Origin: Candidatus Micrarchaeota archaeon
GTDB lineage: Archaea; Micrarchaeota; Micrarchaeia; Norongarragalinales; UBA8480
DNA: 51,535 nt
Assembly (NCBI GenBank): GCA_964514805.1
Contig: CAZERP010000001.1
Location: 5,967-57,501, forward strand
Reading direction: 5' to 3'
Part shown: positions 7,283 to 51,535 of the stretch, one piece after another
Layout: every line of letters begins with the position of its first letter
Numbering within the stretch: position 1 is the first letter of the stretch
Notes under the pieces: model-generated
Told to the model about the DNA's origin: nothing
Seen by the model: the letters and a program-made list of their open reading frames with translations, nothing else
The model's database searches: none
Position numbers and translations under genes: made by a program

Positions 7283-7392
7283 AACTTTTTTTTAAAAAAA
7301 AGCACTAGCATATAAATTAAGAGTTTTTAATTAATATTGGTACATAAACACTAATAAAAAACCCTTTACTACCTCAAGTTAAATTCAATTCA

Positions 7393-8409
7393 GTGATTAA
7401 TAAAAAAATGGACTTAAACCTCATTCTACTTAGCATTATTGTAAGTGCAGTGACTACTTACGTGTTAACGCCTTGGATTATCTACAAAGCGCAAAAACTC
7501 AAACTCGTTGGTTTTGATGTCAATAAAAGTGACAAACGACCAGTTGCTAATTTTGGTGGTTTTGCAATAGTTGGCGCGCTAGTAACTGCAATTTTAGTCG
7601 CGATTCTAATTTTTACTTTTTACAGTAAAGATTCGAGTGTTATAATTTACTTACTTGCAAGTATTAGTTCAATTTTAATAGTAAGCATTATCGGCGTACT
7701 TGACGATCTCTTTAAGTTACATCATAAAGCTAAGGTCCTCTTACCTGTAGCAGGGGCGTTGCCATTAATGGCAATTAAAGCAGGAGAAACAATAGTCGGA
7801 ATTCCATTTATCGGTCCAGTCGACCTAGGCGTACTATACACATTCATAGTTATTCCACTTGGAATTACCGGCGCGGCAAACGCGACAAACATGGCTGCTG
7901 GCTACAATGGACTAGAAGCCGGAATTGGCGCAATAGTAGCCGCCGCATTACTCCTAATTGCAATTAACACTAACGCACTTGCACCTGCATTGATACTTGC
8001 CGCGCTTCTTGGAGCGTGCATTATGTTCCTTAAATTTAACTGGACTCCAGCTAAAGTATTCCCGGCAGATATTGGAACATATGCAATTGGAACTACAATT
8101 GCAGCGGCGGCAATTATGGGAAACATGGAAAAATACGCAGTAATCGCAATATTACCCGCGTTTTACGAATTATTAGCCACGATTTACTATGAAGCAAGGG
8201 GAGTTAAAAGAAGAGAAATATGCCACGCACCTTTAATTTCAAGTGATGGAAAAATCACGCCACCAAAAGGAAGTGAAAAATTCACACTTGCATTCTTAAC
8301 TCTTGCCGTTTTCGGAAGCGACAAGGAAAGAAACTTAGTTCTAAAATTATTATCTTTCTTTGCAATTACTTCAGTTATTAGTTTACTTATGTATTACTTT
8401 AAAGTCTAA
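7393..8409 (+). CDS. UDP-GlcNAc:dolichyl-phosphate GlcNAc-1-phosphate transferase-like (MraY/WecA/GPT family, AglH-like)
   Basis: Polytopic membrane protein with GVLDDLFKL and ANATNMAAGYNGLEAG motifs of the polyprenyl-phosphate HexNAc-1-P transferases. GTG start; an alternative ATG is at 7408. Confidence 0.85.
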   Translation: MINKKMDLNLILLSIIVSAVTTYVLTPWIIYKAQKLKLVGFDVNKSDKRPVANFGGFAIVGALVTAILVAILIFTFYSKDSSVIIYLLASISSILIVSIIGVLDDLFKLHHKAKVLLPVAGALPLMAIKAGETIVGIPFIGPVDLGVLYTFIVIPLGITGAANATNMAAGYNGLEAGIGAIVAAALLLIAINTNALAPALILAALLGACIMFLKFNWTPAKVFPADIGTYAIGTTIAAAAIMGNMEKYAVIAILPAFYELLATIYYEARGVKRREICHAPLISSDGKITPPKGSEKFTLAFLTLAVFGSDKERNLVLKLLSFFAITSVISLLMYYFKV

Positions 8410-8419
8410 TTGAATTTTT

Positions 8420-9592
8420 ATGAACGCGAAATTGCTTTGGGTTATTGACCCAAAAGATGAAATTGAGCTAAAAAAAGCTAAAATTGCAATTCCAGCAGAC
8501 GCGCTAATAATAGATTATGAAAAATTAAAGGAAAACTTTGACCCTGTTTTCACCGCGTTTAAGAAAGGTAAATATGATGGAATAGTTTATTCGCGCAATG
8601 AACAAATAAGTGGAGTAAAAATTGGAAATATTCACGGCTTTCTTAAAACTGGTTATACTTCGTTTAGTGCAATTGACCCCGAAAGTAAGTTACAAATGCC
8701 ATTAAGCGCAATAGATTTTGTCCACAAGGGCGAAGTTGTAATAAAAGCTAAAGAAGTGTCAAGCAAAAATTCTGATTTTACCTATAGTTTGATTTTTGAT
8801 TTAGAACAAATAGGTGGCGCAAAGTTTGGCCTTCCAAGAATACTTAAACTATTAGGCGAGTATAACGTACCCGCGACGTTTTTTACTACTAACATTGTTT
8901 TTGAGACATACTCTGGTCTTAAAGAAAGTATTGAAAAGTTAGGGCATGAAGTGGGCTTACATGGTTTGTATCATGAAGATTTAACTCTTCAAAGCGCCAA
9001 AGAACAATCTGAGTCCATTAAAGAAATGATTTTACTAAACAAAAATAACCAAAGCATCAAGGGCGCTAATTTTATGGGCCGGTTAAATCAAGATACTATT
9101 GGCGCCATGGCTGAAAATGGTTTAGATTATTTTGCTTTTTCTTTAAAAAATAACAACAAAAAGTTATCCGTTTACACTGAGCCTATTTTATTTGAAGGCA
9201 ATAATGGGCTAACAATTACTGGAATTCCTGTTTTTGCAGAAACTTACAACCGAAACGTAGAATCTACGATTAGAGCAATAGAAAATACATACTCGTTTAA
9301 GCAAACAAAACACGTAACTGTGCTACTTCACCCATTTAGAGATGGTAGTTTAGAAAGAATCAAAGAACTAGAAGAATTAATCAAATACTTCCAAAACAAA
9401 AACGCAACTGCACTAACGTTAAAACACGTGAAAAAAACAAACACAAAAACGAATAAAACTAAAGTAGCACATTTGAGGTTTGCAAGCAAAGGCGTATTTA
9501 ACTACGTGATTGATAGACTATATAACAACTGGCAAATCAAAAAAGCAGCTAAAAATAAAGAAAAAGGAATAGAAACTCATTTCAAAATATAA
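8420..9592 (+). CDS. polysaccharide deacetylase (CE4/NodB domain) with unknown ~130-aa N-terminal domain
   Basis: NVPATFFTTNIVFE and GHEVGLHGLYHED are NodB-type motifs in the central part of a 390-aa protein. Confidence 0.8.
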   Translation: MNAKLLWVIDPKDEIELKKAKIAIPADALIIDYEKLKENFDPVFTAFKKGKYDGIVYSRNEQISGVKIGNIHGFLKTGYTSFSAIDPESKLQMPLSAIDFVHKGEVVIKAKEVSSKNSDFTYSLIFDLEQIGGAKFGLPRILKLLGEYNVPATFFTTNIVFETYSGLKESIEKLGHEVGLHGLYHEDLTLQSAKEQSESIKEMILLNKNNQSIKGANFMGRLNQDTIGAMAENGLDYFAFSLKNNNKKLSVYTEPILFEGNNGLTITGIPVFAETYNRNVESTIRAIENTYSFKQTKHVTVLLHPFRDGSLERIKELEELIKYFQNKNATALTLKHVKKTNTKTNKTKVAHLRFASKGVFNYVIDRLYNNWQIKKAAKNKEKGIETHFKI

Positions 9593-40105: not shown

Positions 40106-42925
40106 TTAAGGCTTTTGGTATTCAAAAATCTTAACTTCACCAGTTGGAGATGTGTAAACTAGTTTGTAGCCCGGTAAGTTGTTAAAGAAGTATAACCTAA
40201 CGTAAGCTGAGTCTAGAATTGCACTCGATTTGTTAACTAGTCTAAAGTCTGGGTTGGCGTTGATTAGAGATTGCTGTGATACTGGTAGCAAGTAAGACAT
40301 ATTTGCGTCTACGACAGTCTTGTTTTGTGATTGTAGTGATATTATTGAAAAGTCTCTTGCTAAGTCTGATCTCAAACCAGAATTGTCTATTGGTATGATT
40401 TGATTTTGGTTTAGACAGTATGAAAGTCCAAAGCTGCTTTGCGCAAGGGTTAGTCCTTGTGCGAATGGGCATTGTTGGTTAACCAAGTTGATTGTTTCAA
40501 AGTAGTGGAATAGTTCGTATTCGCTTGAACCTGCTCCTTTTTGCCAGTCTTGGATACTTGGTTGGTTTGGACACGCAGGTAGCTCTATTGGGATGTAGTC
40601 TACTGGTCCTTTTTGACATGTTCCAGATAAGTATACTAACGCGCCCCATTTTTGAATGAGTTCGAAGTCTACGAGTACGTGAGTTGCTTGGTGGTAGTCC
40701 ATAGCGTATTTTAAGTCGTTTGCGTCATCTACGAATCCGTGTGCTACTTGGTGATCGAAGTATGCTCTACTGTTTGTTGGGTCGAGTACGGTTTTGGTTT
40801 CTCCAAGGAACATAGTCCAGTGGCCGTAGTCCCACCAGCTCATTACTCTACAAGAGTGTCCGAATTTAGCTTGGCAGTTGCTTTCGGTTTCTGGGTTTAA
40901 GTAACTGGTGTTATTCTTTAGCCATTGCATTGCAAGTAGCCAGTCTTTTGAAATGGTTGATTGCTTTAAGCCATTAGCCGTAGTTAGCGCGCCGTTGAAT
41001 GCTCCGGTTGCGCCGGTTGCTTGCACTATTCCTGCAAGGCCTCCGAGTAGTAATGTGAATGCAATTACAAATGTTGTAACATGAGTTGAGTTTGTAGTGT
41101 GTTTGAATAGTTTGACTTCGCTGCCTATTTTTTCTAATACTCTTGCAAGTTCAGCAAGTAGTACAGGTAATGCAAATGCGAGTACGATTGCCAAGTGTAG
41201 TATGAATTTGATTTTGTTAAGTCCAATGAATGCTACTGGAAATATTATTAGTACACTTAGGAGTTGATAGTGGACTGAGTCGTTGTCTTTGAGGTTTAAA
41301 GCCGCGACTAGTAGTATTGAAATGATTGATATTATGAACGGCGCGAATACTGGGCTTTGTGTGAAGCTTTCCATTCCAACGCTAAGTGATGCACTGAGAA
41401 GTGAGGCGACTTGGGATGCAAATAAGCTCAACAGTATACATAGTATTGCGTATCCGGCTGCGTTTTTGTATTCTTTTCTTGAAGTAAAAGCATGGACTGC
41501 CCATAATGCAAATGCTAGTGCAAGGCCGTTGAATAGAACGTATGGGTTTAGTACTCCGAATGCACTTGCGAATACTCCTTCAAAAGTTGGGTTTTCTTCT
41601 GCGATTGTGTTACTTAGTGGCGCTCCGTTTTTAGCGATTTTTGCATAGTTAGAAAATAAGCCAAATGGACTTGTGCCGCCAGGTAGTATTGGTAGTAAAC
41701 TAAATACAAGGAAGATTAGTACTAGTACGCCTAGGAATTTGGTTTTGCCCATTGCTTTGACTTGAGGTAATTTGTTTAACGCAAATAGTATTACGCTTGG
41801 TATTAGTGATAGTGCAAATAGTATTGAGACTATTGGGAATCCAATAGTAGGTTCATACGCGCCTAGTATTGCACCTGCGAGTAAGCCGCTGAGTGCAAAT
41901 ATTGCGTTAATTATGATTTTCTTTTCAGTTAGTTTTTCGGTTAAGAAGTCAATTATTGTTGATAGTAGGAAGTATCCTGCGAATACTGCAAATGGCCAGA
42001 TGTATTGTTGTCCTCCAAGTAATGCGGCGGCAGTTACTACTCCTCCGATGAGTGCGAATCTGTAGCTTTGTCTTTTAGTTGCAAGTACGTAAAGTGCAAA
42101 CATTGCAAATGCACTATAGACTCCCCATGGTTGTAATTCAGATACTCCTGATGCGAATTTTTGGATGATTTGTGGCGTGAATGCCATGAATACTGCGCCT
42201 ATTACTCCTGCAGTTTCATCGTATTGTTCTTTTAGAAGCCAGTATGCTACGATTGATAGCATTGCGCCTACGACTGGGGGGTAGATGTTTGAAATTAGGA
42301 TTAAAGTTCCTTTGTCGAAGGCAGTTCCGCTGAATAGTTGGTGTAGTAGCGTCCATGATCCGGTTAAGTATTGAACTAAAGGATGTGTCCTAAATATTTC
42401 TCCAACGGGAAAATAGCTGATATCTAGTGTGTGAGGTACTTGTCCGAATCTAATTAAGAATTCGGTTAACATGTTGTAGTAGTAAGGGTCAAATTCGAAG
42501 AAGCTTGTTGATAGAGGAATTATTTTTATTAGAAAACTTGCAATTGCAATAAGTGCGACTACGATAATTGGCGCGTTTTTTGGAAGGGTTTTTGGGTTAA
42601 ATGTTTTAATTTCTTTGATTTTGTTTTTAACCGCTGCCATTGCATCGCCTTGAATTGCATACGCAGCAATTCCGAGTATAGTTAGAAGCACGACGTTTGC
42701 TAATATCATAGTCGTGTCAAATTTAAGTCCTATTAAGAAGTACTCTAAAAATAGCGCTAGTGGTACTGCTATTAGTGACATTGCAAATGATAGTAGTAGT
42801 TTGTCGGAAAAGTTTGCGCCAGTTTTACGCAAAGCGGCAAATGTTAAACTTGCAGCTGGAATAAACATTAAGATAAAAGACGCTAAAAGCGCAAATGCGT
42901 TAATCATAAGAAAAAAACTATACAA
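40106..42925 (-). CDS. aglB: oligosaccharyltransferase AglB (STT3 family)
   Basis: About 13 TM helices followed by a large soluble domain. It has the WWDYGHW catalytic motif and an EFDPYYY first-loop acidic motif. ORF-track start 42925 is a TTG; the first ATG is at 42907 (MINAF). Confidence 0.9.
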   Translation of the reverse strand: MYSFFLMINAFALLASFILMFIPAASLTFAALRKTGANFSDKLLLSFAMSLIAVPLALFLEYFLIGLKFDTTMILANVVLLTILGIAAYAIQGDAMAAVKNKIKEIKTFNPKTLPKNAPIIVVALIAIASFLIKIIPLSTSFFEFDPYYYNMLTEFLIRFGQVPHTLDISYFPVGEIFRTHPLVQYLTGSWTLLHQLFSGTAFDKGTLILISNIYPPVVGAMLSIVAYWLLKEQYDETAGVIGAVFMAFTPQIIQKFASGVSELQPWGVYSAFAMFALYVLATKRQSYRFALIGGVVTAAALLGGQQYIWPFAVFAGYFLLSTIIDFLTEKLTEKKIIINAIFALSGLLAGAILGAYEPTIGFPIVSILFALSLIPSVILFALNKLPQVKAMGKTKFLGVLVLIFLVFSLLPILPGGTSPFGLFSNYAKIAKNGAPLSNTIAEENPTFEGVFASAFGVLNPYVLFNGLALAFALWAVHAFTSRKEYKNAAGYAILCILLSLFASQVASLLSASLSVGMESFTQSPVFAPFIISIISILLVAALNLKDNDSVHYQLLSVLIIFPVAFIGLNKIKFILHLAIVLAFALPVLLAELARVLEKIGSEVKLFKHTTNSTHVTTFVIAFTLLLGGLAGIVQATGATGAFNGALTTANGLKQSTISKDWLLAMQWLKNNTSYLNPETESNCQAKFGHSCRVMSWWDYGHWTMFLGETKTVLDPTNSRAYFDHQVAHGFVDDANDLKYAMDYHQATHVLVDFELIQKWGALVYLSGTCQKGPVDYIPIELPACPNQPSIQDWQKGAGSSEYELFHYFETINLVNQQCPFAQGLTLAQSSFGLSYCLNQNQIIPIDNSGLRSDLARDFSIISLQSQNKTVVDANMSYLLPVSQQSLINANPDFRLVNKSSAILDSAYVRLYFFNNLPGYKLVYTSPTGEVKIFEYQKP

Positions 42926-43954: not shown

Positions 43955-44497
43955 TTACACTTGAACTGCGTTAATTACAACTATTCCTCTTTCTTTGCCA
44001 TCGCATTGGGTGCTGATTGCGGTTTTTAGTAGGTCTAGGCTTGTTTGCCAGCATTTTGGCGCGTCAATTGCCGGGTCACAAATAGTTACAGCACCGTCTT
44101 TAAATTCGTCGATTAAAACAAAATGGCCCCAGTTTTTCCCATTCTTGAACGGCGCGTGATGAATGTTAACAATTACGTCACAATTAGCTAAGTTATTTTC
44201 TATAAATTCTTTAAAGTCCGTAATTTGGCTAGTCTTGTAAACTTTAGCAGCTAATCCAAACTGAGCAAAGTACGTCTGGGCGCTTTTTGATTCAAATTCA
44301 TCAATATTCAAGCCCGGGTCATCATCATTTACTAGTAAACCTTTACAATCGCAAGCATCTTTACTAGTTACTCGTGTACCAAGCGCTTTAGCTACATCTA
44401 ACTCGTCTACTAAATAGCCTCTTCTTTGAAGCGCCATTTTAACACAAGCCGCACTACAACAGCAGGGCTTTTGAACACAAGGAGAATAACGAGACAT
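43955..44497 (-). CDS. stand-alone papain-like (peptidase C39-like) cysteine peptidase domain protein
   Basis: QKPCCCSAACVKMAL fits the Gln plus catalytic Cys context of C39. NWGHFVLIDE fits the catalytic His strand. 180 aa, with no transporter domain. Confidence 0.5.
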   Translation of the reverse strand: MSRYSPCVQKPCCCSAACVKMALQRRGYLVDELDVAKALGTRVTSKDACDCKGLLVNDDDPGLNIDEFESKSAQTYFAQFGLAAKVYKTSQITDFKEFIENNLANCDVIVNIHHAPFKNGKNWGHFVLIDEFKDGAVTICDPAIDAPKCWQTSLDLLKTAISTQCDGKERGIVVINAVQV

Positions 44498-45213: not shown

Positions 45214-45247
45214 AAATAGAATTAAACCAGATTAAAAGTTTAAAGAG

Positions 45248-45318
45248 TGCGTTTGCCGGGAATCGAACCCGGAGCTCAACCTTGGGAAGGTCGTACGTTA
45301 CCACTACACCACAAACGC
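45248..45318 (-). tRNA. tRNA-Gly (anticodon CCC)
   Basis: The reverse complement GCGTTTGTGGTGTAGTGGTAACGTACGACCTTCCCAAGGTTGAGCTCCGGGTTCGATTCCCGGCAAACGCA folds as a cloverleaf. It has a perfect 7-bp acceptor stem, a 5-bp T stem with a TTCGATT loop, an anticodon loop TTCCCAA and discriminator A73. No CCA is encoded. Confidence 0.9.
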
Positions 45319-45333
45319 TTTTATTCGTAGTGT

Positions 45334-45350
45334 AAAAAGAAAAAAGAGAG
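45334..45350 (-). terminator. pyrimidine-tract terminator candidate after glyA
   Basis: The minus strand reads ctctcttttttcttttt between glyA and tRNA-Gly. Confidence 0.3.
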
Positions 45351-45358
45351 TTTTAAAA

Positions 45359-46750: not shown

Positions 46751-46779
46751 TTTAAATTTACTAGCTACGTTTACGTAGT
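46751..46779 (+). promoter_or_regulatory. TATA-like box plus palindrome abutting the start codon of the 46780 operon
   Basis: tttaaattta (46751-46760) lies about 25 nt upstream of the ATG, suggesting a leaderless or near-leaderless transcript. The palindrome ctacgt-tt-acgtag (46765-46778) sits between the box and the ATG. Confidence 0.3.
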
Positions 46780-47520
46780 ATGCCTAAAAAGACGCCGTTC
46801 GTAGTACTGGACTTATTGTGTGGAGCTATGCCTGTACTCGATGGACTAGCACATAGAAACGTTTTTGGGCCTGAAAAGAAACTTCACTTAGTTTATCATG
46901 GAGTCGATGAAGATAAACCCGGATACGAAAAACACGTATCCGAAAGGTTAGCTAGGCTTGAAAAACACGCATCATTAGGCGAAATTAACTTTCATAGGGA
47001 AAGAGTTCACTTCTGGCAGCCTGAAATCTTTGAAGGTCAACTAGATCGCGTGCTAAATGGCGAAAAAGCAAACGAAATTTGGACCGTAATGCACAATTCA
47101 ACCCAATACTATAAAGGTAGTTCTACTCTTGAAAAACTCGCTGGTAAACTAAAAAAAGGCGGCAGGTTATACGTAATTGAAGAAAATCACGATAACCCAG
47201 ATAGCATTCTAGGCACCGCGCTTCTAAGTTTATACTCACCAAAAGGTAGACAACATGGAATTGACTACCCAGAAAGAGTAATTGATGAAAACACTGCCCG
47301 TGAAATTCACGCGACTATGTCGAAGTACATTCAAGAACACGCCGCTAGATTTGGTTTAGAGTTAGAACACTATGGTACTAGAATGAACGAAAATGAATGG
47401 TACTACGCGCCCGGAAAACCATACGCACAGAAATATCAAGGCGATTTAAACGAGAGAATAAAAATGCACACGCGATTTCCCCAATACGCGGCGCATTACA
47501 TTGTTTTAAAAAAGAAGTGA
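46780..47520 (+). CDS. divergent Rossmann-fold methyltransferase-like protein, paralog A
   Basis: PFVVLDLLCG (motif I-like, GxG degraded), YHGVDED, EIWTVMH and LKKGGRLYVIE. It shares these blocks with the next gene. Confidence 0.5.
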   Translation: MPKKTPFVVLDLLCGAMPVLDGLAHRNVFGPEKKLHLVYHGVDEDKPGYEKHVSERLARLEKHASLGEINFHRERVHFWQPEIFEGQLDRVLNGEKANEIWTVMHNSTQYYKGSSTLEKLAGKLKKGGRLYVIEENHDNPDSILGTALLSLYSPKGRQHGIDYPERVIDENTAREIHATMSKYIQEHAARFGLELEHYGTRMNENEWYYAPGKPYAQKYQGDLNERIKMHTRFPQYAAHYIVLKKK

Positions 47521-47527
47521 AACCAAC

Positions 47528-48211
47528 ATGACTGAAAAGAAACCGTTTGTAGTTTTAGACCTTCTTTGCGGAGATGGACAAGTAGCGCACGCAGTCAAAG
47601 ACAGAATAAAAGACCGCCCGCTAAAGTACATCGGCATAGATGATAAAAGATACCGCGTATTTGGAAAAAAATTCCCGTGGCCAAGCGGACCTGAATTCAT
47701 ATTTCACGCAAGTACAATTGATTTTAAAACGGAAGAAAAACTAAAAGCTAAACTAGACGAACTACTACAAGGCGAAAAAGCAGACGAAATTTACCTAAAC
47801 ATGCCAGACATTGACGTAAATGTAACTCCCCCACACGTACTTAAGTTAATTCACGCGGCGCTAAAACCCGGCGGGAGATTTTACCATATGGTTGACTCTG
47901 ATTGTCAAAGCGCGTACGGACAACTACGTGATTTACACCCGCCATTCGGAGACAAACCCGGACAAATTTTTGAAGTGAACAAACAAATAATAAGAGCCCG
48001 CGCAGAACCACTTGGCTTTAAACTTGACAAATATGGAGTCAAAAGTTACTCTAACAAAACAGGAAACGAATACTGGTACACCGGACCAAATAGAAATAAA
48101 ACAGCGAAAAGAAAAACAGATGAAGTAGTAGAAAAACACACTGGCTACCCATTAATTGGATTTGAAGGGCCATACTTAATGCACTTTATAATAGCAAAAA
48201 AAGTTGAATGA
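47528..48211 (+). CDS. divergent Rossmann-fold methyltransferase-like protein, paralog B
   Basis: PFVVLDLLCGDGQ, YIGIDDK, EIYLNMPD and LKPGGRFYHMV. It begins 7 nt after paralog A. Confidence 0.5.
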   Translation: MTEKKPFVVLDLLCGDGQVAHAVKDRIKDRPLKYIGIDDKRYRVFGKKFPWPSGPEFIFHASTIDFKTEEKLKAKLDELLQGEKADEIYLNMPDIDVNVTPPHVLKLIHAALKPGGRFYHMVDSDCQSAYGQLRDLHPPFGDKPGQIFEVNKQIIRARAEPLGFKLDKYGVKSYSNKTGNEYWYTGPNRNKTAKRKTDEVVEKHTGYPLIGFEGPYLMHFIIAKKVE

Positions 48212-48215
48212 AAAT

Positions 48216-48716
48216 ATGAAGCGTAAAATTATTGTTAATGATTCTTTCCAGAAAGACTACGTTTACTATTTAACTGAAATGCCAGGTAAGAATTTTGACC
48301 CTGAGTTTAAACCTGAATTAACTCCGCGAGAAATGCTTGAACTAGGTGTATTTGACGGTAAATACCTAAACGAATGCACGGGCGAGTTTCCAAAGGAGTG
48401 GTTTAAACGCGCAAAACTAAGCGAAGAACCAAACCCCTCGCTAAATTATTTTAAAGTACACGCATCCAAACCATTACAATACTGGCTAGATAAACTTTGG
48501 ATTCACCCACAAGACCCGAGAGGCTGGTTCCAATGGTACGCTCGTTACTACATGGGCCGAAGAAGTGAAGATGACGCGCGTCAAATCAAAAGATGGAAGG
48601 CAATGAAAAGACACATCGCGCAACTTCAAAAACACTGCCCCGCCGGCGCGCTAATGTGCAGACCCGTACAAAGACAAGCGCTTTTGCACTGGGCGTATGA
48701 CTCGAGAAAAATGTGA
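48216..48716 (+). CDS. conserved hypothetical protein (DPRGWFQWY...GRR..DD..QIKRW motif)
   Basis: About 166 aa. FDGKYLNECTGEFPKEWF and DPRGWFQWYARYYMGRRSEDDARQIKRWKA look like a conserved family that I cannot name. ATG 48216 is preferred over TTG 48204. Confidence 0.6.
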   Translation: MKRKIIVNDSFQKDYVYYLTEMPGKNFDPEFKPELTPREMLELGVFDGKYLNECTGEFPKEWFKRAKLSEEPNPSLNYFKVHASKPLQYWLDKLWIHPQDPRGWFQWYARYYMGRRSEDDARQIKRWKAMKRHIAQLQKHCPAGALMCRPVQRQALLHWAYDSRKM

Positions 48717-48722
48717 ATTATT

Positions 48723-49184
48723 ATGAAGTTAATGACCCTTTGTTATTTGAAAAAAGACGGTAAGACTTTGATGCTTAATGTCACTAAGAAGGATTCCATT
48801 TCTACGGGTTTTTGGAACGGTTTGGGCGGCAAGTTTGAAGAAGGTGAAACACCAGAAGAATGCGTCGCGCGTGAAGTTTTAGAAGAAAGCAACCTTACGA
48901 TTAAAGATCCTGTTTTGAAAGGTCGGATAACTTTTACAGACATAGAAAAAGGTAGCAAAAATAACGGCCACGTATACGTGTTTGTCGCAACCCAATTTAC
49001 GGGCACGATTGAGAACTCTACGGAAGGTATTTTAGAATGGATCGACGACTCAAAACTAAATACATTAAAGAGACATCAAGCCGATGCTGTTTTTAGCAAA
49101 TGGCTTTCCGGAGATAAATTCTTCTCTGCTAAGTTCACATACCAAGGAGAAAAACTAATCAACCACAAAGTAAACTTCTACTGA
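48723..49184 (+). CDS. NUDIX hydrolase (MutT-like)
   Basis: Nudix box GGKFEEGETPEECVAREVLEESNL. Confidence 0.9.
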   Translation: MKLMTLCYLKKDGKTLMLNVTKKDSISTGFWNGLGGKFEEGETPEECVAREVLEESNLTIKDPVLKGRITFTDIEKGSKNNGHVYVFVATQFTGTIENSTEGILEWIDDSKLNTLKRHQADAVFSKWLSGDKFFSAKFTYQGEKLINHKVNFY

Positions 49185-50005
49185 GTAAATTTTAATCTTT
49201 CGACTAAATTTTTAGGTAGCGGAATTTGTTTACCTCTAAAGAATAATGTAACTCCTCGTTTGTTTATTCTAAAAGTTAAATGCTCAAGCATTCCAAAACT
49301 TTGATCTAATTCTGCCGTTATTCTATTTTTAGTATTATACTGCCTACTACCAGTAGTATTTACTATTCCTATTCCCCCGAAATAAGTTGTTTGACCCTCT
49401 TGTCTTTTTCCGGGAATTGGAAGCGTATCTTTAGACATTACACCGTCAGAGGGCATAGAATAACGTACATCTGAATTTATCTTAGTTAGTTCGTGCAACA
49501 AGGGTGAAATAATTTCCGCATGCGATACTAGTACTAAATGCCTAGACTTACGGGAATTACCTCCCGCGCCGTATTGATCAAATGCATCTTTTATCTCTTG
49601 AGGAAGTATAAAACCATCGTGTACATTACCTCTGCTACTTGGTTGACGAGGAATGTTTAAGTTTGGAGTAATTTTAATGCGACGTGATTGTAATTTTTCA
49701 ACAACACCTTCAGGTACATCTTGCGCTAAATACGCATCATCTAAATCTTCAAAGTGTGGTTTTTCTTTCGTATTAGAAACTAAATGAGTAGATAAACCAT
49801 AAGCTGTTTGCATAGCTCTTGGGTTAGGCGAAGTTAGAAATTCAAATTCACTACCCGGATATTTACGCTTCAAAGCAAGCCCTTTACGCCTAGCACCATC
49901 AAACTCTTCCTCAGTTAAATGAATACCACCCATGTGTGGCATTCGAGTCTCCGCTCGATTATGCGGGGAGTGTCGAACTAAAGTAACGTAAAGAGTTTTT
50001 GCCAT
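49178..50005 (-). CDS. histidine-phosphatase-superfamily (PGAM/SixA-like) protein with C-terminal extension
   Basis: Motifs LVRHSPHN (RH), TSPNPRAMQTA and LVLVSHAEII. About 90 extra C-terminal residues. Confidence 0.65.
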   Translation of the reverse strand: MAKTLYVTLVRHSPHNRAETRMPHMGGIHLTEEEFDGARRKGLALKRKYPGSEFEFLTSPNPRAMQTAYGLSTHLVSNTKEKPHFEDLDDAYLAQDVPEGVVEKLQSRRIKITPNLNIPRQPSSRGNVHDGFILPQEIKDAFDQYGAGGNSRKSRHLVLVSHAEIISPLLHELTKINSDVRYSMPSDGVMSKDTLPIPGKRQEGQTTYFGGIGIVNTTGSRQYNTKNRITAELDQSFGMLEHLTFRINKRGVTLFFRGKQIPLPKNLVERLKFTQ

Positions 50006-50041: not shown

Positions 50042-51535
50042 TTATCCTTTTACTACTCCGATTGGTGTTAGTCTGCATACTGGTTTGGATATGCCGGATT
50101 GGCGTACGCTTTCGATTACTTGGTCTACGTCTTTGTATGCGGCGCCTGCTTCTTCTGCGATGCTTTTCATGTTTGGCGCTCTTATTCCAATGCCGTGTTT
50201 TGCCATATCCGCTACTAAGTCTTCGCCTTTGAAAGTACGAATAGCTTCAGCCCGTGACATTACTCTGCCCGCTCCGTGGTTACTTGAACCCATGGATATT
50301 TTTCCACTAGGCGTTCCGACAAGCATATACGAGGCAGTTGACATTGAACCTGGAATTACTACTGGTTGTCCAACTTTACGATAAGCCTTGGGCACTTCTT
50401 TGCGACCAGCCCAAAGCGCTCTTGTAGCGCCCTTACGGTGCACGCATAGGCTTTGCATTTTGCCGTCAACTTCGTGATCTTCAAACTTAGCGATATTATG
50501 GCACACGTCATAAACCGTTTTCACGTTTAAGTCACTTTCCCATTCGCGTTTGAAAACTTCAGTAAGCGTCTCGCGAGTCCACTGCGCCATAATGTGGCGA
50601 TTACTAAATGCGAAGTTAATCGCGCAATTCATAGCCGCGAAATAATTGTCTGCTTCTTTGGTTCCAAGCGGTGCACACACTAAATTACGGTCAGGGAGTT
50701 CGATTTTGTATTTTTTAACCGCATCTACGAATTCGCGAACGTAGTCACTACAAATTTGATGACCAAAACCCCTTGAGCCAGAGTGTATCATTATGGTAAC
50801 TTGTCCTTTCTTAGTTATTCCAAACGCTTTAGCTGTTTCTTTGTCGTATATTTCGTCGACTTTTTGAAGTTCTAAAAAGTGATTACCGCTTCCAAGAGTT
50901 CCAAATTGAGGGCCCCCTCTCTTGCGTGCCATTTCTGAAACTTTACTTAAATCCGCGCCATCCATGTGCGCGTTTTCTTCACAGTGTTCCATATCTTCTT
51001 TGAGGCCAAGACCTTGATCTATGAAGTATTTTGGACCTTGTGTGACTGCGTCTTCAAATTCTTGATCTTTTAAGCGAATACGTCCTTTGCTTCCAACCCC
51101 GCAGGGTACGTTTTTGTAAAGTGCGTTTAAAAGATCTTTAATTTTAGGTTTAACTTCATCGTAAGTAAGATCAGTTCGAAGCATACGAACTCCGCAATTA
51201 ATATCGTAACCTACTCCACCTGGGCTTACAATCCCGTCATTTTCAGGATCAAAAGCAGCTACTCCACCAATTGGAAAACCATATCCTTCATGACCATCTG
51301 GCATTACCATTGACGCGCCTACAATTCCAGGAAGACAAGCTACGTTTCGTGCTTGTTTTAATGTACGGTCATTTTTCATCTGGTTAAGCATAGCTTTTGT
51401 AGCAAAGACTCTTACCGGAACGTTCATCTTGCCGCTTTTGGGTAATTCCCAGACTGCATTTTCTACTTCAGTAAAATCTAAACTCTCATCAAAAGTAAAC
51501 TCAGATTCAATATTTTCCTTAATATCCTCAACCAT
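50042..51535 (-). CDS. rtcB: RNA-splicing ligase RtcB
   Basis: Motifs GYDINCGVR, GSGNHFLE, HSGSRGFGHQ, CHNIA and SNHGAGR. The ATG is exactly at the window edge, so the true start cannot be confirmed. Confidence 0.93.
   Translation of the reverse strand: MVEDIKENIESEFTFDESLDFTEVENAVWELPKSGKMNVPVRVFATKAMLNQMKNDRTLKQARNVACLPGIVGASMVMPDGHEGYGFPIGGVAAFDPENDGIVSPGGVGYDINCGVRMLRTDLTYDEVKPKIKDLLNALYKNVPCGVGSKGRIRLKDQEFEDAVTQGPKYFIDQGLGLKEDMEHCEENAHMDGADLSKVSEMARKRGGPQFGTLGSGNHFLELQKVDEIYDKETAKAFGITKKGQVTIMIHSGSRGFGHQICSDYVREFVDAVKKYKIELPDRNLVCAPLGTKEADNYFAAMNCAINFAFSNRHIMAQWTRETLTEVFKREWESDLNVKTVYDVCHNIAKFEDHEVDGKMQSLCVHRKGATRALWAGRKEVPKAYRKVGQPVVIPGSMSTASYMLVGTPSGKISMGSSNHGAGRVMSRAEAIRTFKGEDLVADMAKHGIGIRAPNMKSIAEEAGAAYKDVDQVIESVRQSGISKPVCRLTPIGVVKG

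Follow-up and report, generated by a model that had tools for sequence, protein, structure and literature searches.

Paralogous methyltransferase heterodimers with one inactive subunit, such as Trm6-Trm61 and METTL3-METTL14, are well known. The Nudix hydrolase MTH1 (NUDT1) hydrolyzes oxidized and methylated purine deoxynucleoside triphosphates (dNTPs), and Trp-117 and Asp-119 of the human enzyme both touch the base (PMC7152754). Here, we describe a cluster of four genes, A to D, in which two methyltransferase-like paralogs (A and B) and an MTH1-like Nudix hydrolase (D) enclose a conserved gene without a family name (C). The cluster lies in a 51,535-nucleotide (nt) stretch of DNA, hereafter the window, from a Candidatus Micrarchaeota archaeon (GenBank assembly GCA_964514805.1, contig CAZERP010000001.1, positions 5,967 to 57,501). 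An earlier note on this DNA had taken the four genes to be one co-translated module. The reading that we favor, and hold to be somewhat probable, is that the cluster is lineage-specific, with a methyltransferase array and the Nudix gene as its core and C as a separate copy of an autonomous family. Gene C, rather than the operon, is the item of interest here.

Gene C behaves as an insert in a methyltransferase–Nudix array

Among species-representative genomes, at least 571 encode a relative of C (571 of 600 pattern matches). The C loci of the 80 best other-species genomes in this set were searched by tblastn, with Nudix genes counted within 5 kb. No homolog of A or B was detected within 5 kb of C in any of the 80 genomes, and a D-like Nudix gene was found in two. 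A co-occurrence of the DPRGWFQWY family, to which C belongs, with methyltransferase and Nudix genes is not borne out in these genomes, the two Nudix cases apart.

Conservation of the order of the four genes is confined to close relatives. Contig L081, the closest relative, reads glyA(−), A, B, C, a third methyltransferase paralog, Nudix, and an intein-containing RtcB gene(−). The partial contig L175 retains C, the third paralog, and Nudix, while L087 carries B, an A-like paralog, Nudix, a gene of 428 amino acids (aa), and RtcB(−), with no copy of C. In L090, an A-like gene is followed 6 nt on by a B ortholog. Tandem A/B-type pairs thus recur (L090, L087, and L081), and a methyltransferase paralog lies directly upstream of the Nudix gene in L081, L087, and L175. 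Only four contigs, all closely related, share the methyltransferase array with Nudix, one of these being without C, and the more distant members of the A/B family have neither Nudix nor C beside them. This pattern of synteny indicates that the unit conserved in this narrow lineage is the methyltransferase array and Nudix gene with a convergent RtcB, and that C is a variable insert. Gene C behaves as an autonomous gene placed within the array, not as a dedicated partner of A/B or D.

We regard the proposal of the earlier note as unlikely, according to which the four genes are translated together and serve as one module for a single nucleotide-containing substrate (a nucleotide sugar, a dinucleotide, or an RNA 5′ end), with A as a dead partner of B. 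What stands of this proposal is the compact, operon-like packing, in which the intergenic distances measure 7, 4, and 6 nt (A–B, B–C, and C–D) behind one upstream promoter-like element, together with the synteny A-B-C-(paralog)-Nudix in L081 and C-paralog-Nudix in L175. Against this, C is unlinked to A/B in 80/80 genomes and to a D-like Nudix gene in 78/80, and L087 keeps the array and Nudix without C. Tandem A-like and B-like pairs do recur, as a module would have it, but their order varies, being A–B in the window and B followed by the A-like gene in L087. The strong purifying selection on A despite its altered motif I, and the precedent of the paralogous heterodimers with an inactive subunit, would favor a dead partner; however, A-like degeneracy of motif I is also seen where a family member has no adjacent paralog on its contig, and B likewise departs from the motif IV consensus of the family. 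Finally, the evolutionary history of D differs from that of A to C.

Gene C represents a large family shared by cellular genomes and viruses

The third gene had been described as belonging to a conserved family without a name, and no library names it: searches of C against Pfam, NCBIfam, and PHROGs gave no match. A homology search returned at least 8000 clusters at an expectation value (E) ≤ 1e-3 (8000 of 8000 scored candidates). The best 120 homologs are full-length and mostly 67–75% identical, with one at 93%; none carries a Pfam domain, and their named sources include Anaerolineae, Patescibacteria, Woesearchaeota, Nanoarchaeota, Geomonas, Simkania, and Bacteroidales. The best 80 of the at least 571 genomes span Methanosarcinales, phyla of the Candidate Phyla Radiation (CPR), Desulfobacterota, Planctomycetota, Verrucomicrobiota, Gammaproteobacteria, and others, at 65–73% identity. 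Identity stays at 65–75% between bacterial and archaeal phyla that are very distant from one another. Small-genome CPR and DPANN-type lineages have retained the gene, and very diverse genomes carry it as a single chromosomal copy; it is also present on 50 rhizobial megaplasmids. All source names among these search results are "hypothetical protein."

The family extends to viruses. Fifteen large or jumbo phages encode a homolog with 26–43% identity over 80–98% of the length, among them YerA41, vB_Yru_GN1, Carin-5, pVa-21, the immuto phages, BONAISHI, the Yong phages, and pir03. A further 176 IMG/VR viral contigs, many from giant-virus bins, carry homologs that are 44–62% identical.

In C, the block DPRGWFQWYARYYMGRRSEDDARQIKRW occupies residues 100–127, and the core motifs are PELTPxEMLxLGVFGGKY, DPRGWFQWYCRYYxGRR, RW..RH, and CRxxQRQALLHW. 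Cellular and viral proteins have in common the Gly-rich PxLxPxEMLxxGxFGGKY, DPRGWFQWY..GRR, D120, Q123, R126, W127, R132, H133, and QRQ..L.W; the wider core that includes the phages reads PxLxPxEMxxxGxFxGxY, DPxGW.xWY...GRR, RW, and Q.LL.W. Arg, Trp, Asp, and Gln are among the residues that never vary, and the family is basic and Trp-rich (median isoelectric point (pI) 9.7; 4.2% Trp). The homologs also bear on the start codon: they begin M-x-K-K-(I/V)-x-V-N-D at the ATG at 48216, and the gene call of the closest relative uses the equivalent ATG, in agreement with the earlier preference for this start over TTG 48204. At residue 109, C of the window has Ala (48540–48542, GCT), where Cys is found in approximately 96% of the homologs from cells and 94% of those from viruses (WYCRYY), including the C proteins of L081 and L175. 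Phage versions are without the conserved cysteines, and gp065 of YerA41 is without all three; the three conserved cysteines of the family are dispensable.

AlphaFold produced a confident model of C (predicted local distance difference test (pLDDT) 86.9; predicted template modeling score (pTM) 0.82). Helices dominate the model, which also has a hairpin at the N-terminus and long, ordered loops. Foldseek identified no fold neighbor of this model in the PDB (best E 1.3, template modeling score (TM) 0.20), and sequence and profile searches of the PDB with three different queries gave nothing below E 0.02. The single BFVD match is A0A6B7ERE2, an unnamed viral homolog (E 8e-8, TM 0.66). No catalytic motif was recognized in C, a literature search on its motifs found nothing, and the papers on YerA41 and Carin-5 make no statement on the C homolog (PMC9023294, PMC12686479).

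Three weak matches of C were noted. A Gly-rich segment of C, EMLELGVFGGKY (residues 7–63; window 48234–48404), aligns weakly with residues 12–68 of PDB 2p7h, NLLELGSFKGDF, a chain deposited as "Hypothetical protein." This match is non-significant and recurring (E 1.1, then 0.026 with a more diverse profile), and it could reflect either chance or a common nucleotide-binding loop. A PADLOC match of C to UzuA (E 3.9e-4) was set aside as spurious, as it was seen in 1 of 46 family members, and matches to DruM (E 4e-4 to 0.025, residues 56–143) were treated as noise.

Neighborhoods and possible function of gene C

Clustering of the neighbors of C in 80 cellular and 80 viral loci revealed none that is conserved across clades. 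The synteny is clade-specific, with DnaB as the neighbor in Smithellaceae, an HhH protein in Anaerolineae, and TspO in rhizobia. Of 74 loci, 58 have the upstream neighbor on the strand of C and 46 have the downstream neighbor on the other strand; C thus usually ends a co-directional run of genes. A Smithellaceae-type syntenic group accounts for all of the 13 genomes, out of 73, in which C stands after dnaB, following rpsF-rpsR-rplI. In two rhizobial records, Rhizobium etli p42e and a Mesorhizobium plasmid (L179:4507-5501 and L180:4465-5501), it is directly downstream of TspO/MBR, with a 4-nt overlap between the two genes in R. etli.

The viral neighborhoods point loosely towards deoxypyrimidine or modified-nucleotide metabolism. 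In YerA41, gp065 comes straight after nrdB-nrdA and a dUTPase is encoded three genes further downstream, and the homolog of Vibrio phage pVa-21 lies just upstream of thymidylate synthase. Giant-virus-type IMG/VR contigs have ThyX near C at 17 loci (approximately 3.4 kb away) and dUTPase at 8 loci (approximately 2.3 kb). YerA41 and Carin-5, which are the two best phage matches of C, have hypermodified thymidine (PMC9023294, PMC12686479). One explanation of the cluster starts from these observations and holds that C is an enzyme or accessory factor of such metabolism, adjoining the Nudix gene since both serve nucleotide-pool quality; its retention in small-genome CPR and DPANN-type lineages would fit. 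We nevertheless think it decidedly unlikely. The gene order in giant viruses reflects common ancestry, which reduces these loci to approximately one observation, and genes of this kind are common and clustered in large phages. The neighbors in Carin-5, immuto, and BONAISHI are hypothetical proteins only, a Pfam scan of 73 cellular upstream neighbors revealed no enrichment of nucleotide metabolism, and C itself displays no recognizable catalytic motif.

Judging from the composition and distribution of the family, the most likely role of C is to bind or process, by itself, a nucleotide or nucleic acid. A fuller proposal can be built on this: C would represent a new fold and a new family that works autonomously on nucleotides or nucleic acids, that may belong to deoxypyrimidine or modified-nucleotide metabolism, and that has been recruited repeatedly by jumbo phages, hypermodified-thymidine phages, and algal giant viruses. 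We put this forward tentatively and hold it to be less likely than not.

Genes A and B belong to a rare methyltransferase-like subfamily

The paralogy of A and B is borne out by BLASTP, which aligns them over their full length (28% identity, E 5e-20). The shared blocks quoted in the earlier note are largely present (PFVVLDLLCG, L(N/Q)GEKA(N/D)EI, LK(K/P)GGR(L/F)Y, and HYIV or HFII near the C-terminus), except that B has LGFKLDKYG where a block beginning with FG had been given. No protein of the window reaches the gathering score of a Pfam methyltransferase model. Gene A has no Pfam methyltransferase match, and B has only sub-threshold matches to Methyltransf_23/31/12/25, the best being Methyltransf_23 at 17.3 bits versus a cutoff of 27. 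A word-indexed search of 5.8 billion proteins recovered near-identical orthologs only, and a HMMER search of 1.84 billion representatives with a profile of A and B returned 55 clusters at E ≤ 1e-3, nearly all of 200–280 aa. Generic methyltransferase models (Methyltransf_31/23) match 16 of 43 family members, some at E 1e-7 to 1e-6, and the family profile matches the motif I–II region of BamL (E 1.2e-5).

The AlphaFold model of B, built from 5 sequences, is of moderate confidence (pLDDT 70.8, pTM 0.79), and its β and α elements alternate. A Foldseek search of the PDB with this model gave 298 matches at E ≤ 1e-3. Among the 50 best, nearly all are class I S-adenosylmethionine (SAM) methyltransferases and the few others are enzymes with this fold; at the top are the 16S rRNA m1A1408 methyltransferases 5d1n and Kmr (4rx1), at E ~2e-8 and TM 0.45–0.5. 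These matches and the BamL profile match bear out the suggestion that the paralogs have the class I methyltransferase fold, with the fold of A being assigned through its full-length alignment to the modeled B. A class I SAM-methyltransferase fold of A and B is thus supported at the level of the model, with SAM binding and methyl transfer as the predicted activity. Together with their relatives, A and B are a new and rare subfamily of predicted class I methyltransferases. The contigs of these relatives are archaeal where the flanks identify a source (ribosomal L15e, L10e, and P1, RNase P subunits, and a TtuA-like gene). A metagenome scan for further copies of the cluster with the alignment of B orthologs gave one distant match, and a search for another A/B paralog elsewhere within the window gave none. 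One family representative, P0146, has 2118 aa with 8 matched stretches and appears to be a multi-repeat version of the methyltransferase-like domain.

The family is basic (median pI 9.6), and its signature comprises VLDLxCGxG, YxGID, FDEIHxHMP, LKPGGRxYH, GLxLxxYG, an invariant Trp, and a C-terminal HFxIxRKP. The first Gly of GxGxG in motif I is substituted in the entire family, only C14 and G15 of the motif being nearly invariant, and the third Gly is variable (CGPM, CGQM, CGLA, and others). The Asp at the end of strand 2, in Y-x-G-(I/V)-D, is nearly invariant, and Glu87 (DEI) is invariant. In B, motif I (VLDLLCGDG) keeps the second and third Gly and has Leu in place of the first; the motif II Asp (YIGID), motif IV (DEIYLNMP), and LKPGGRFY are all present. 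In A, motif I (VLDLLCGAM) keeps only the middle Gly, the third being replaced by Met, and motif IV is NEIWTVMH, with N-E-I in place of D-E-I. The survival of SAM-binding residues is accordingly mixed: the strand-2 Asp is retained in both paralogs, whereas the third Gly of motif I is gone in A.

In total, A has lost the third motif I Gly, the motif IV Asp, the HxH, and the Pro; B has lost the HxH only; and the third paralog of L081 and L175 has kept the HxH and lost MP as well as the GG of GGR. The asymmetry between A and B is not clear-cut, since the motif I Gly varies family-wide and the HxH consensus of motif IV is lost in both. The description of A as the degenerate partner of B is therefore not established. 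Because different family motifs have been lost, in a complementary manner, the paralogs may form a hetero-oligomer.

Gene D is an MTH1-like Nudix hydrolase with a changed base pocket

The assignment of D as a MutT-type Nudix hydrolase is confirmed by its match to Pfam NUDIX (PF00293; E 6.9e-12, 46 bits versus a cutoff of 21.1). The Nudix box, GKFEEGETPEECVAREVLEESNL (residues 36–58), fits GX5EX7REUXEEXGU except for the final G, which is N. The best PDB match is zebrafish NUDT1 (5otn; E 8.4e-15, residues 2–150), and mammalian MTH1 chains follow at E 2e-11 to 3e-9. Gene D has in common with MTH1/NUDT1 the WNGxGGK segment with the equivalent of Asn-33, the equivalent of Asp-120, and the C-terminal F-x-(F/Y)-QG. 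By contrast, the equivalent of Trp-117 is His and that of Asp-119 is Ala, so that the specificity of D cannot be read off from MTH1. As aligned, D is an ordinary MTH1-like Nudix enzyme with a changed base pocket. As MTH1 also clears methylated purine dNTPs, a pairing of methyltransferases (A/B) with a methylated-purine sanitizer (D) is conceivable, if speculative.

The D proteins of the window and L081 are 69% identical and those of the window and L087 87%, whereas glyA, A, B, and C are 90–98% identical to their L081 counterparts. The right end of the cluster looks recombined, which would give the cluster a mosaic history in which that of D differs from that of A to C. The B protein of L087 is only 60% identical to B of the window, despite the 87% in D.

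Genomic context and expression

The features of the locus are collected in Table 1. The placement, strand, and spacing of the four packed ORFs (open reading frames) agree with the earlier description, as do the flanking genes, namely SHMT/glyA (E 7e-151), RtcB, and a weakly matched histidine phosphatase. Comparison with L081 gave dN/dS values of 0.066 (A), 0.075 (B), 0.067 (C), and 0.137 (D); given purifying selection on all four, they are real genes and not chance ORFs.

Table 1. Coordinates of the cluster and of neighboring features in the window.
Feature	Position	Strand	Remarks
Gene A	46780-47520	+	246 aa; ORF listing; paralog in rare class I SAM-methyltransferase-like family
Gene B	47528-48211	+	227 aa; ORF listing; same family as A
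Gene C	48216-48716	+	166 aa from ATG (170 aa from TTG 48204)
Gene D	48723-49184	+	153 aa; MTH1/NUDT1-like Nudix hydrolase
TTTAAA, candidate archaeal TATA box	46751-46756	+	Read from the sequence; 24 nt before the A start codon
Histidine-phosphatase-family gene	49178-50005	−	Weak His_Phos_1 match, E 3e-5
RtcB RNA ligase	50042-51535	−	Pfam RtcB E 5.4e-172; 497 aa; reaches window end
tRNA-Gly(CCC)	45247-45318	−	
C39-like cysteine peptidase, stand-alone	43955-44497	−	Peptidase_C39_2 E 5e-8; between GalU and pirin
AglB/STT3 oligosaccharyltransferase	40106-42925	−	939 aa

The TTTAAA element upstream of A would give the cluster a near-leaderless transcript. Near-identical sequence is present in wastewater and activated-sludge metagenomes. 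Metatranscriptome contigs from two wastewater assemblies match C (48288–48424, 137 nt, 0 mismatches) and D (48766–48957, 192 nt, 2 mismatches), which is weak evidence for expression of both genes in situ; the cluster is probably co-transcribed.

RtcB is convergent to the cluster and is kept as a neighbor in L081 and L087. The RtcB ortholog of L081 (13093–16023, 976 aa) contains an intein with a LAGLIDADG homing endonuclease, and the RtcB of the window is without an intein at this site. The histidine-phosphatase gene, which lies on the other strand and shares 7 nt with the end of the Nudix gene, had been counted among the neighbors of interest; it is not a conserved one, being missing from L081, where RtcB comes straight after Nudix. 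On the other side, L081 has a 430-aa gene between pirin and glyA (7285–8577) with faint Pfam matches to sigma-70 region 4 and helix-turn-helix domains, and the counterpart position in the window (45214–45358) holds only the tRNA-Gly(CCC). AglB/STT3 and several glycosyltransferases are encoded upstream, and together with the C39-like peptidase they suggest a surface-glycosylation region. AglB/STT3 and an eEF1A-type elongation factor, encoded in the window and in the relative, identify the source as archaeal.

A different view of this context would make the cluster a mobile defense or counter-defense islet in which a methyltransferase and a Nudix enzyme accompany a virus-shared gene. Its content is indeed mosaic among relatives, C is common to phages and giant viruses, and PADLOC gives weak matches of B to mad2 (E 1.4e-5) and of D to the candidate system PDC-S07 (E 4e-14). 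These matches, however, fall on domains of very large superfamilies (methyltransferase and Nudix), and that of C to UzuA is the spurious one mentioned above. No nuclease, integrase, or other island hallmark is present, the housekeeping flanks (glyA, tRNA-Gly, and RtcB) are conserved in order, and a chromosomal, single-copy gene in very diverse genomes is not what such an islet would be expected to contribute as C. We consider this explanation highly improbable.

Proposed model and comparison with known systems

Returning to the favored reading, we picture a lineage-specific, probably co-transcribed cluster in an uncultured wastewater or activated-sludge archaeon. Its core would be a tandem array of two or three basic class I SAM-methyltransferase paralogs followed by an MTH1-like Nudix enzyme. 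The target of A and B would most likely be a nucleic acid (RNA) and possibly a nucleotide, and given their complementary motif loss, the paralogs may work as a hetero-oligomer. For D, the most likely substrate would be a non-canonical purine nucleoside triphosphate, e.g., an oxidized or methylated one. Gene C would be one copy of a widespread family prone to horizontal transfer that in this lineage came by chance to lie within the array.

Several points weigh against this picture. Gene C sits inside the array in 3 of the 4 related contigs, with gaps of 4–7 nt, so a lineage-specific functional coupling of C with the array is possible. The case for RNA as the substrate of A and B is weak, because the B model has a pLDDT of 70.8 and reaches TM values of approximately 0.45–0.5 to the rRNA methyltransferases. 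Since two base-recognition residues of MTH1 are replaced in D, MTH1-like substrates cannot be assumed. Two short RNA contigs are insufficient to establish co-transcription, and contaminating DNA could be their source. More generally, the functions given here to A through D are read from sequences and predicted structures.

The cluster as such is a local curiosity, with a rare methyltransferase subfamily in tandem, complementarily degenerate copies beside an MTH1-like Nudix enzyme. The wider value of the locus lies in gene C, whose family has thousands of members and an unusual conservation between domains of life and large DNA viruses, and which stands outside Pfam, NCBIfam, and PHROGs with no solved structure and no recognizable fold neighbor. 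Families with such a profile have often proved to supply an enzyme that had been missing from nucleotide or nucleic-acid metabolism. As C is present in tractable hosts (R. etli p42e, Sinorhizobium, Geomonas, Sphingobacterium, and the phages YerA41 and Carin-5), its function is directly testable.

Among known systems, C has no characterized relative; nearest to it are gp065 of YerA41, for which "structural protein" is a GenBank annotation only, and the BFVD model A0A6B7ERE2. Compared with Trm6-Trm61 and METTL3-METTL14, A and B are likewise adjacent, have diverged to 28% identity, and include at least one copy with a changed SAM loop; purifying selection acts on both, and tandem pairs recur in relatives. 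In contrast to those heterodimers, the motif losses are spread over all paralogs instead of being confined to one, and there is no homology beyond the common fold. By fold, the nearest enzymes are the m1A1408 methyltransferases NpmA/KamB/Kmr (5d1n and 4rx1), which A and B resemble in size (approximately 220 aa) and basic charge; neither matches the NpmA model PF24675, which is matched by 1 of 43 relatives (E 4.6e-4). By sequence profile, the nearest is BamL, the plantazolicin methyltransferase. With class I methyltransferases at large, the family has in common the strand-2 Asp (YxGID), an acidic motif IV (DEI), and the LKPGGR strand, and its hhDxxCGxG resembles motif I in part. What sets the family apart from known methyltransferases is a set of signatures of its own: FDEIHxHMP, GLxLxxYG, an invariant Trp, and HFxIxRKP.

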